From a virus, in IMG/VR virus record IMGVR_UViG_3300045988_170760, positions 1 through 64,000 of that record: a stretch of DNA of 64,000 bases, one strand, 5' to 3'. The notes under the pieces are model-generated. The model ran no database searches and was not told the origin of the DNA. It was given only the letters and a program-made list of their open reading frames with translations. How positions within the stretch are numbered: the first letter of the stretch is position 1; every line of letters starts with the position of its first letter. Shown here piece by piece: positions 46,872 through 47,537 of this stretch. Both the position numbers and the translations under genes were made by a program.

Positions 46872-46983
46872 TTTAGAAACCTTCTACACCTATTGGGAGA
46901 GAAGGGGTTTCAACCCCTTGCTCATTACCATATTATGGATAGAGATATAGCGGAGTAGAGCAGTGGTAGCTCGTCTGGTTCAT

Positions 46984-47491
46984 ATTTAATGTTACAAAGT
47001 GGAATTATTAACTAGGAGAGTGGTCATATATTATCTTTATTTAATAAGTGTCAGATAAAGGGAATGAAGTGTGAGTTAGAGTGTATTGTAAAATTTATAG
47101 AAAATGGTTTTATAGTATCTATACCATATGGAAATACAAGTAGATATGATTTATTGATAGATGCTGGAAATAATAAATATTTTAGAATACAATGTAAAAA
47201 TGCACATCAAAAAGAAAATGGAAGTTATGTTATTCAGACAGCAAATAAACAATATACTTCAACATCAAGAAATATAAAACATTATACAGAAGAACAAATA
47301 GATTTTATATGTTCTATTGTTGAAAATCAATTAGTTGTTATACCTGTAAAATTAATAAAAGGATGTAAATCAAAAATTTTTCGTAGTAAAGAATTTCCAC
47401 CATTAAATAACAGTTGTATATCAACTTGTAATTGGATAGAAGATTATACTATAGAAAACCAAATATTACCACTTTTGTAAAGAAGAGTAAG
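46984..47491 (+). mobile_element. 508-bp intervening sequence in tRNA(CAT) carrying an endonuclease ORF (group I intron-like; class unverified)
   Basis: It follows U36 and ends in G. A candidate IGS GUGGA (46999-47003) can pair with exon UUCAU, with a U-G wobble at the splice site. ACAAAGUGG (46994-47002) pairs with CCACUUUUGU (47468-47477). Only ~90 nt lie outside the ORF. Confidence 0.5.
47064..47480 (+). CDS. PD-(D/E)XK endonuclease (I-Ssp6803I / PDDEXK_5-like homing endonuclease candidate)
   Basis: CELECIVKFIENGFIVSIPYGNTSRYDLLIDAGNNKYFRIQCK fits the E...G..V..P.G...YDL(I/L).D....R(V/I)Q(V/C)K layout. It lies inside the tRNA insert. Confidence 0.6.
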   Translation: MKCELECIVKFIENGFIVSIPYGNTSRYDLLIDAGNNKYFRIQCKNAHQKENGSYVIQTANKQYTSTSRNIKHYTEEQIDFICSIVENQLVVIPVKLIKGCKSKIFRSKEFPPLNNSCISTCNWIEDYTIENQILPLL

Positions 47492-47537
47492 AACCAGAAG
47501 GTCAATGGTTCAAATCCATTCTCCGCTACCATAATAT

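Follow-up and report, generated by a model that had tools for sequence, protein, structure and literature searches.

What becomes of a tRNA gene when an endonuclease gene that brings no recognisable ribozyme with it settles in the anticodon loop? The question is raised by a 508-bp insert in an initiator-like tRNA(CAU) gene on positions 1 to 64,000 of IMG/VR virus record IMGVR_UViG_3300045988_170760. This 64,000-nucleotide stretch of phage DNA, called the window in what follows, is near-identical to a human-gut contig, ENA ORTQ01000088 (118 kb, locus L010; other loci with related sequences carry similar numbers). That the insert is a mobile homing-endonuclease element, precisely placed in the anticodon loop of the tRNA gene, is well supported. 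Its design, filled by an open reading frame (ORF) and closed at its ends by a paired rod, recurs in many phages and points either to protein-dependent splicing of phage tRNA or to an endonuclease gene that has hijacked a tRNA as its carrier. Our preference, held at somewhat less than even confidence, is for the first: a ribozyme-free mobile tRNA intron that would be excised by one or more protein nucleases and resealed by an RNA ligase, a course of splicing that we infer.

The gene is divided in the following way.

46949..46983, + strand: tRNA 5' half, with the 5' strand of the acceptor stem, the D arm, the 5' strand of the anticodon stem and loop nucleotides U32 U33 C34 A35 U36
46984..47491, + strand: the insert, a 508-bp mobile element, as delimited by ARAGORN and by allele comparison
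47492..47531, + strand: tRNA 3' half, with A37, A38, the 3' strand of the anticodon stem, the variable loop, the T arm, the 3' strand of the acceptor stem, the discriminator A and CCA

Spliced in silico, 46949-46983 and 47492-47531 make a 75-mer initiator-like tRNA(CAU) with a perfect cloverleaf and an encoded CCA. With introns allowed, ARAGORN calls tRNA-Met(cat) with a 508-nt insert 3' of the anticodon, in agreement with an earlier note on this DNA, made from the letters alone, that had proposed two half-tRNAs joining into a 75-nt tRNA(CAU) with CCA around a 508-bp insert. In its default mode (no introns) the same program does not call the split gene and reports only the downstream tRNA-Pro (47538-47614) and tRNA-Thr (47664-47738). 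Initiator-like traits of the tRNA body, which we take to be such under established initiator-tRNA rules, are A11:U24, G-C pairs at the bottom of the anticodon stem (three in the allele of L001) and a weak A1:U72. The target of the insert is of the same class as that of the cyanobacterial endonuclease I-Ssp6803I: an initiator-like tRNA(CAU), entered directly after the anticodon or beside it. A is the first base both of the insert and of the 3' exon, which makes the splice join ambiguous by 1 nt: it may fall at 36/37 (the insert then ending in G) or at 37/38 (the insert then ending in A). The predicted ligated-exon junction reads ...GUCUGGUUCAU followed directly by AACCAGAAGG..., the spliced-junction sequence being GCTCGTCTGGTTCATAACCAGAAGGTC; the unspliced junctions read ...GGTTCATATTTAATG... 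and ...GAGTAAGAACCAGA..., and the junction of a circular insert would read ...GAGTAAG followed directly by ATTTAATG....

A sibling contig, IMGVR_UViG_3300045988_167160, carries the tRNA without the insert (...TCTGGTTCATACCCAGAAGG...). Its flanks are 99.7% and 97.3% identical to those of the window, its Rnl1 gene is 99% identical to the window's Rnl1, and its tRNA equals the window's exons at 74 of 75 positions, with an identical 5' half and a sole difference at nt 38 (C, against A in the window). The presence of an uninterrupted tRNA in so nearly identical a contig makes the insert a precise presence/absence polymorphism. The insert is, moreover, 93% identical to that of L001, where the flanks are only 61-70% identical, and near-identical inserts diverge only in the distal 3' exon, as expected of a co-conversion boundary. 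Presence and absence, an insert more similar than its flanks and divergence confined to the distal exon are, as far as sequence can tell, the signatures of homing.

The endonuclease to which this mobility would be due takes up nearly the whole insert.

47014..47018, + strand: AGGAG, Shine-Dalgarno-like, 9 nt 5' of ATA 47028; putative ribosome-binding site
47028..47480, + strand: endonuclease ORF, with a probable start at ATA 47028 (150 aa), the first ATG at 47064 (138 aa) and the stop UAA at 47478-47480

The ORF at 47064-47480 matches PF11645 (PDDEXK_5) at E 3.5e-17 with 63.2 bits (cut-off 26.1); it also matches phrog_5018. A profile built from 23 homologues of the ORF matches PDB 2OST, which is I-Ssp6803I, at E 1.4e-6. 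An AF2 model of the ORF (predicted local distance difference test, pLDDT, 87.9) has the four 2OST chains as its top Foldseek matches (template-modelling score, TM, 0.66; root-mean-square deviation, rmsd, 2.0), followed by Hjc resolvases, with a tRNA-splicing endonuclease marginal at rank 48. E4, D29, Q43 and K45 (the catalytic YD...QxK residues) are invariant across the 23 homologues. The product is predicted to be a PD-(D/E)XK homing endonuclease of the I-Ssp6803I type, a new member of a known family; this is what the earlier note had proposed, and the PF11645 match and the profile and fold matches to 2OST bear it out. Most homologues open with M-x-x-LFNExQIKG, and the window has ILSLFNKCQIKG in frame 5' of the ATG at 47064. 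Because this homologous N-terminus lies in frame upstream, with AGGAG 9 nt before the ATA at 47028, the ORF probably runs from that weak start to 47480 and would yield a 150-aa product. The earlier note, which began the ORF at 47064, was right that it fills the insert; with the ATA start the leader is 44 nt and the tail 11 nt, leaving ~55 non-coding nt instead of the ~91 nt that the ATG would leave.

A separate observation concerns the reading of the conserved motif in relatives of this ORF. In L002 (~1466-1495) and L025 (~1470-1495) an in-frame TAG falls exactly at the conserved Gln of LFNExQIKG. Suppressor-type tRNA(CUA) genes occur in related arrays (L024, 678-751; L029, 224-298), and TAG appears to be read as Gln in these phages.

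The endonuclease has 107 homologous clusters in metagenomes, and the tRNA insert belongs to a large family. Other phage contigs hold at least 22 distinct inserts in tRNA-Met(CAU) genes (Met inserts, below), 467-516 nt long, at the same site and with ORFs of 44-100% identity. ORFs that match PF11645 also lie inside tRNA-Pro(UGG) and tRNA-Gln(UUG), in inserts of ~813 nt whose ORF has an additional C-terminal domain, and inside tRNA-Gly(GCC) (insert of 455 nt) and tRNA-Asp(GUC) (483 nt). In Enterococcus phage EFP01 (KY549443), which is in culture, the tRNA-Asp gene at ~105242-105777 is split by a 463-nt insert that contains a PF11645 ORF and is not annotated as such. The ORF takes up the whole insert in all families: in relatives the non-coding parts can amount to no more than a few nt of leader and 'TAAG' as the tail, and in several the tail is the stop codon and a G alone. 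Several arrays hold two interrupted tRNAs, among them both tRNA-Pro(UGG) copies of L031, and L058, L060 and Pectobacterium phage My1 have stand-alone copies of the PF11645 gene, placed between tRNA genes.

Some inserts in these arrays are without a complete endonuclease gene. A 156-nt insert in tRNA-Lys(UUU) (L011, L012 and L013, 991-1220; L015, 933-1162) codes for nothing but what is left of the Pro-type endonuclease's C-terminal domain (…IRKWC…SDEEWEKI, then stop), and its termini still form a 12-bp rod. Non-coding anticodon-loop inserts of 53-75 nt are found in L023 (912-1040, Arg CCG), L031 (111-241) and L032 (64-193; both Pro UGG), L038 (1521-1667 and 1979-2124) and L039 (1118-1255), the tRNAs affected including Arg, Pro, Leu and Gln. 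The Rfam tRNA model spans two of these short inserts (51 and 38 bits), and their size is below that of any group I ribozyme. In L005 (~1400-1950) a 5' tRNA half breaks off in the anticodon loop. A distant PF11645 homologue comes next, and after it a complete tRNA-Met that differs from the half; there is no matching tRNA 3' half, and the arrangement may be a product of homing replacement or of rearrangement. The GenBank record of EFP01 (L075-L077) has zero tRNA genes annotated; its terminase, RecA, DNA polymerase and nrdD are in pieces, which suggests many more introns or endonuclease insertions.

Could the insert splice itself? Self-splicing would call for a degenerate group I core in the coding sequence, or for a new small catalytic motif made of the terminal rod and its internal loop (described below), whose conserved 4x4 bases do imply selection beyond pairing. 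In Synechocystis the homologous endonuclease belongs to a genuine group I intron in this tRNA (PMC1995217), and the phages considered here have small canonical group I introns in nearby tRNAs. RF00028 nevertheless finds nothing at E<=10 in 46900-47560, while a control of the same 661-nt search size, the 183-nt tRNA-Leu group I intron of L058, is found by the same model at 53.2 bits (E 1e-12); small-window searches of L021, L028 and L029 with RF00028 also gave no match. (An Rfam search of 36.7 kb in 'evalue' mode missed the same L058 intron that the 661-nt search found at 53 bits; the large multi-locus Rfam negatives were discarded for that reason, and only small-window negatives are used.) A covariation scan over all column pairs of 19 Met inserts found no conserved helix inside the ORF. 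The anticodon stem and the two helices of the rod, A and B, are all that it returned, the rest being 4-bp AT background, and synonymous differences are spread throughout the coding region. The lack of conserved helices inside the ORF holds across homologues of 44-100% identity.

The insert, then, has no recognisable group I or other known ribozyme core. The earlier note's account of an ORF-filled insert without a core is borne out (no RF00028 match, no P3-P9 helices across 19 relatives), and this is not an ordinary group I intron; its framing of the locus as group-I-like is not sustained. A group I core embedded in the coding sequence, which it had listed as an alternative, is disfavoured, and was set aside here, on the strength of the negative Rfam search with its working control and the missing helices in the ORF. 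Two particular traits had been adduced. The first is GUGGA (46999-47003), which can indeed pair with the exon end, including a U-G wobble, but its bases sit in helix B; the pairing, as GUGGA or GUGAG at insert nt 16-20, is found in one clade that includes the window (with one compensatory change, in L011), whereas GUG(A/G) is absent from the first 80 nt in 6 of 18 relatives and is part of the Shine-Dalgarno region in most of the others. The second is the sequence at the junctions: U is the last base of the 5' exon and, in the 36/37 frame, G is the last base of the insert. On a 36/37 junction a terminal G is found in 21 of 22 Met inserts, but L028, for which only 37/38 is possible, ends in U and the Gln insert of L041 ends in C. 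No sequence, and therefore no common core, is shared by the termini of the four families Met, Pro, Gly and Asp, and the known endonuclease-carrying group I introns of bacteria keep ~200 nt outside the ORF (PMC1995217). On this balance self-splicing is improbable. A likeness to loop A of the hairpin ribozyme (an AGAA strand and a 4-bp helix) was considered separately and rejected: the substrate strand is mismatched, cleavage would miss the tRNA junction, and there is no Rfam match.

The canonical small group I introns (183-292 nt) of the same arrays are in tRNA-Leu and tRNA-Phe genes (L058, 10484-10678; L054, 10768-11081; L056, 3833-4211). In L058 a stand-alone PF11645 gene lies 40 nt 5' of the intron-bearing tRNA.

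What the insert does have in place of a core is a terminal rod, made of the following parts.

46984..46987, + strand: helix A 5' strand, AUUU, which pairs with GAGU at 47485-47488
46988..46991, + strand: 5' side of the internal loop, AAUG, which faces AGAA at 47481-47484 in a conserved 4x4 purine-rich loop
46992..47002, + strand: helix B 5' strand, UUACAAAGUGG, which pairs with 47469-47480 with one bulged T and contains GUGGA
47469..47480, + strand: helix B 3' strand, CCACUUUUGUAA, which overlaps the last codons and the stop codon
47481..47491, + strand: 3' tail, consisting of AGAA (loop), GAGU (helix A 3' strand) and AAG

In general terms nt 1-4 of the insert pair with nt -7 to -4, the 4x4 purine loop follows, a helix of 5-13 bp covers the stop codon, and the last three bases lie against the anticodon. 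Together these parts are predicted to make one helix that extends the anticodon stem and holds the two junctions a few bp apart. In the window the tail AAG (47489-47491) would set its G against C34 and its first A against U36, the middle A facing A35 as a mismatch, while U33-A37 and (in the window) U32-A38 carry the rod on into the anticodon stem. All 21 relatives whose tail is AAG keep the A-A mismatch at A35; L028 has the ending ...AUGU instead.

Covariation makes a strong case for the rod. Helix A is kept in 22 of 22 inserts through two-sided changes (ATTC/GAAT, ATCG/CGAT, ATCA/TGAT, GTTT/GAAC, ATTT/GAGT). In helix B unrelated sequences stay complementary across the 22 inserts, and all 8 of the pairs counted change on both sides. 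In an ungapped alignment of 15 sequences 92.4% of the cells of the rod are paired, against 74% in shuffles; 13 rod pairs are double-changed, the covariation score is reached by 0 of 500 shuffles, and slid registers are 39-52% paired. The long-range helix that the earlier note saw clamping the two ends of the insert is thus real, refined to 46992-47002 with 47469-47480 and one bulged T. The AATG/AGAA loop is nearly invariant, and the unpaired bases of loop and tail are as conserved as the helices, which argues for recognition by a specific partner and not for mere stability. The 3' block AAAGAAGAATAAG is kept both where it is translated (…CKEE, then stop) and where it is untranslated, and the constraint is therefore on the nucleic acid. 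With RNAfold the Pro, Gln, Gly and Asp inserts, too, fold into this coaxial rod, by means of termini that are unrelated in sequence and complementary each to its own exons. The rod, stacked on the anticodon stem, is the sole conserved RNA structure of the insert.

Paired termini around an ORF are also the mark of homing-endonuclease introns in archaea, and if the window came from an archaeal virus the insert would be removed by the bulge-helix-bulge endonuclease and RtcB of the host. A G+C content of 25% would suit some gut methanogens. The junctions lack the bulge-helix-bulge that such an endonuclease needs: the rod is continuous, with the one A-A mismatch, and the 4-bp helix A has the two junctions to one side of it. 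(Several registers were tried by hand, and none puts the junctions in 3-nt bulges 4 bp apart.) Bacterial tmRNA genes stand beside the interrupted tRNA-Met in L004 (2047-2486) and L056 (4848-5141), an M23 peptidoglycan peptidase gene is present in the window, binning had placed related contigs with Lachnospiraceae and Acutalibacteraceae, the cultured example, EFP01, infects Enterococcus faecium, and the tRNA body is bacterial initiator-like with an encoded CCA. An archaeal intron is accordingly a possibility to which we attach hardly any weight.

Two accounts of the insert remain to be weighed against each other. On the one that we tentatively prefer, protein-dependent removal, the tRNA body of the precursor would fold normally, the rod would carry the ORF at its tip as one very large loop, and the endonuclease would be translated from this pre-tRNA. 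One or more protein endoribonucleases (a structure-specific RNase of host or phage and the endonuclease itself are the candidates) would cut both junctions, and the opened anticodon loop would be sealed by an RNA ligase: here a T4-type Rnl1 together with a kinase/HD healing enzyme, elsewhere perhaps a ligase of the host. At the level of DNA the element would spread by homing, the endonuclease cutting uninterrupted alleles and repair copying the insert in. On the other account the insert is never spliced. An endonuclease gene would have homed into a dispensable tRNA gene and ended its decoding, the tRNA body and the rod now serving the element; RNase P and RNase Z would trim the precursor to an RNA with ends protected by the acceptor stem and with the endonuclease mRNA as an extension of the anticodon arm. 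The laboratory 'tRNA scaffold' is an artificial counterpart of such a molecule. We consider this second account unlikely, though a good deal less so than self-splicing. The tRNA gene may also be a disrupted pseudogene, one of the alternatives of the earlier note.

The state of the exons speaks for removal, since the interrupted tRNAs, spliced in silico, have 20.40 pairs, compared with 20.47 in 150 uninterrupted neighbour tRNAs. Recent homing into genes that were still whole would also account for intact exons. Without splicing they would be under selection still, or simply young, and neither the exon-decay test nor the comparison of near-identical alleles separates selection from recent homing. 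The coexistence of interrupted and uninterrupted alleles in near-identical phages, which implies that the tRNA is not essential, sits easily with a gene that is never spliced, as do the stand-alone gene copies between tRNAs in L058, L060 and My1, one of them with a weak terminal AT stem. A tRNA scaffold also accounts, with no extra assumptions, for a rod that is continuous with the anticodon stem, for the lack of a bulge motif or a ribozyme, and for junctions that vary in position. It does not explain why unpaired bases of loop and tail should be conserved like the helices, and these non-helical bases favour true removal of the insert. The inserts that lack a nuclease gene (156 nt and 53-75 nt) and the doubly interrupted arrays favour it as well: without splicing, the former would persist, their exons intact, with no gain as a scaffold, and some arrays would hold two dead tRNAs, in the case of L031 both copies of tRNA-Pro(UGG). 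Homing endonuclease genes that lie inside other genes are, moreover, almost always tied to a splicing element.

Several considerations weigh against protein-dependent removal. Excision is inferred throughout, and neither bacteria nor their phages are known to splice tRNA by a protein-based pathway, nor did the literature searched describe one. The junctions are without the bulge-helix-bulge motif, and they are not in one place: they lie at 34/35 in Gln, at 35/36 in Gly and in the Asp of EFP01, at 36/37 or 37/38 in Met (in L028 only at 37/38), and at 37/38 in Pro. The offset between the cuts across the rod is -1, 1, 3 or 5 bp, according to family, and no single nuclease of fixed geometry therefore fits all families. 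The closely related Pro and Gln endonucleases occupy different junction positions, which disfavours the endonuclease itself as a fixed-geometry cutter. Finally, EFP01 has no detectable homologue of the ligases and kinases described below in 150 of its 155 kb (a point that agrees with a tRNA that is never spliced), and neither EndA nor RtcB was found in the 40 window ORFs scanned with Pfam (~40 more of >=90 aa were not scanned).

Three specific ways of cutting were considered and put aside. RNase III as the only nuclease is rejected, in that offsets of -1, 1, 3 and 5 bp never match its 2-nt 3' stagger. Excision at the DNA level by the endonuclease, acting at both junctions, would leave overhangs, CAT and CTT, that are not complementary. 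The endonuclease might also cut RNA that mimics its DNA site; this idea does not work for the Pro and Gln enzymes, which are closely related, and is retained only as a sub-option. The Met rod does reproduce the left half-site, and the 36/37 frame gives a 3-nt 3' offset, an offset that is automatic in any continuous rod; the cut of I-Ssp6803I is likewise said to have a 3-nt 3' offset.

The enzymes that might heal and seal a cut anticodon loop are encoded upstream in the window.

37659..38159, + strand: Macro-domain protein (PF01661, E 8.8e-7), directly 5' of the ligase gene
38822..39928, + strand: T4 Rnl1-family RNA ligase (PF09511, E 3.3e-11), a candidate sealing enzyme with a putative link to the insert
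40108..41040, + strand: fusion of a polynucleotide kinase (PNK; AAA_33/KTI12-like) and an HD phosphohydrolase (PF13671, E 1.8e-20; PF01966, E 8e-6)

The kinase-HD fusion is a candidate end-healing enzyme, its link to the insert also being putative. The cluster of Macro, Rnl1 and PNK/HD genes (37.7-41.0 kb) lies 6-9 kb upstream of the split tRNA, Rnl1 and PNK/HD being 6-8 kb away; in L054-L056 an RNA ligase, a kinase and a phosphoesterase are found within 10 kb. Co-occurrence with a ligase is suggestive in the window and in L054-L056, and absent in EFP01. The earlier note had offered protein-assisted cut-and-rejoin by the phage's own enzymes as one alternative; of those that it listed this is the best that remains, and genes for an RNA ligase and a kinase-HD protein are present in the phage. 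The set of Macro, ligase and kinase genes recalls the processing of by-products of fungal-type tRNA splicing, and may equally be directed against host defence.

Other features of the window and its relatives touch the tRNA array from a distance. A 919-aa protein (43381-46140, + strand) matches PF05183 ('RdRP'), the family of two-barrel YonO-like RNA polymerases; its gene ends ~0.8 kb upstream of the tRNA cluster, with only a 246-aa ORF (46131-46871) between, and the tRNAs may be transcribed by this non-canonical polymerase of the phage's own. A skipping-rope RNA (RF02924, 51 bits, above the gathering score) lies at 15921-16001 on the - strand, and a second copy is found beside tRNAs in L025 (2552-2621). 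Structured RNAs crowd the arrays elsewhere (L031, 613-1073; L044, 1-269; L074, which is EFP01, 2133-2719; L008, 2200-2320; L039, 333-400; L056, 3559-3616), and include GOLLD-like RNAs (101 and 76 bits, both below the gathering score), a ROOL RNA in EFP01 (265 bits), a drum RNA and a twister-P1-like match. In L056 a weak HDV-like match starts exactly at the 3' end of the split tRNA-Met. At ~30 kb of the window gene orientation and the sign of the GC skew switch, with - strand genes to the left and + strand genes to the right, and G+C drops to 19-21% around 18-30 kb.

What is at stake can be put briefly. The endonuclease of the classical cyanobacterial tRNA group I intron is found here with no ribozyme and with termini that have co-evolved with each anticodon arm. 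If the tRNAs are spliced, an enzymatic tRNA-splicing pathway lies hidden in viruses that infect bacteria, phage RNA ligase and kinase genes acquire a second job besides countering anticodon nucleases, and there is a concrete intermediate for the exchange of partners between endonuclease genes and introns. We think it possible, with a confidence still further short of even, that these elements are the first ribozyme-free, protein-spliced mobile introns of the bacterial world, including derivatives that have lost the endonuclease, and that they are rejoined by repair ligases of phage or host. With the same reserve it may be proposed that in this class an endoribonuclease that is not yet known, possibly the PD-(D/E)XK enzyme acting on RNA, would read the rod, and that T4-type repair enzymes would gain a role in splicing. 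If the tRNAs are not spliced, the element is a selfish gene for which the tRNA body serves as RNA scaffold, and many of the tRNA genes predicted in phages are inactive. Standard tRNA finders miss the split genes, and the tRNA repertoires of phages in gut metagenomes are therefore miscounted. Since the cultured phage EFP01 carries an example, the question is directly testable.

How does the element compare with what is known? Textbook knowledge has it that tRNA introns of bacteria and phages are self-splicing group I introns and that protein-dependent tRNA splicing is archaeal and eukaryotic. Archaeal introns (for example rRNA introns with LAGLIDADG ORFs), which the review PMC3984707 cites, are cut by EndA at a bulge-helix-bulge and joined by RtcB. 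The phage insert resembles them in being nearly all ORF, in having ends that pair and so juxtapose the junctions, in having no ribozyme and, on the protein-dependent reading, in using a protein nuclease and a ligase. It differs in that 3-nt bulges with a 4-bp spacing are missing (its junctions are found within a continuous helix or at its margin), in its bacterial context, in encoding a PD-(D/E)XK and not a LAGLIDADG enzyme, and in the lack of EndA from the 40 Pfam-scanned ORFs of the window. In phage T4, Pnkp and Rnl1 heal and seal the anticodon loop that has been cut by PrrC. The window, too, encodes an Rnl1-family ligase (PF09511) and a kinase/phosphoesterase (PF13671 with PF01966), which might serve the split tRNA in a like manner; in the case of T4, by contrast, it is a mature tRNA that a defence nuclease of the host breaks, with no insert to be removed, and EFP01 is without detectable enzymes of the kind.

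The closest relative by protein is the group I intron in the tRNA-fMet gene of Synechocystis PCC 6803, which is 655 nt long and has the 150-aa I-Ssp6803I ORF and ~200 nt outside it (PMC1995217). Membership of the PF11645 family, an ORF of 150 aa, an initiator-type tRNA(CAU) as target, a site next to the anticodon and presence/absence mobility are common to both. The ~200 nt of ribozyme in the one contrast with ~55 non-coding nt and no detectable core in the other; the phage insert, unlike the Synechocystis intron, has a covarying terminal rod, and it is found in a gut phage instead of a cyanobacterial chromosome. By place the nearest likeness is to the 'enigmatic' tRNA introns of the Lak megaphages of Prevotella, which are unclassifiable by Rfam and conserved across cohorts, one of them with a possible tRNA (10.1101/356790). 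They, too, are found in gut phages, interrupt tRNA genes in the anticodon region and are not classified by Rfam; the paper reports no encoded endonuclease, no terminal helix and no insert lengths (10.1101/356790). These introns are the only related report that we found, full-text literature searches having turned up no description of PF11645-filled, ribozyme-less tRNA inserts. Stand-alone homing endonuclease genes provide the last comparison: close relatives of the window's gene do lie between tRNA genes (L058, L060, My1), whereas the window's gene lies inside a tRNA, at one precise position and between paired termini that have co-evolved. As a whole, the element shares a part with group I introns, with archaeal introns and with stand-alone endonuclease genes, and fits none of them.

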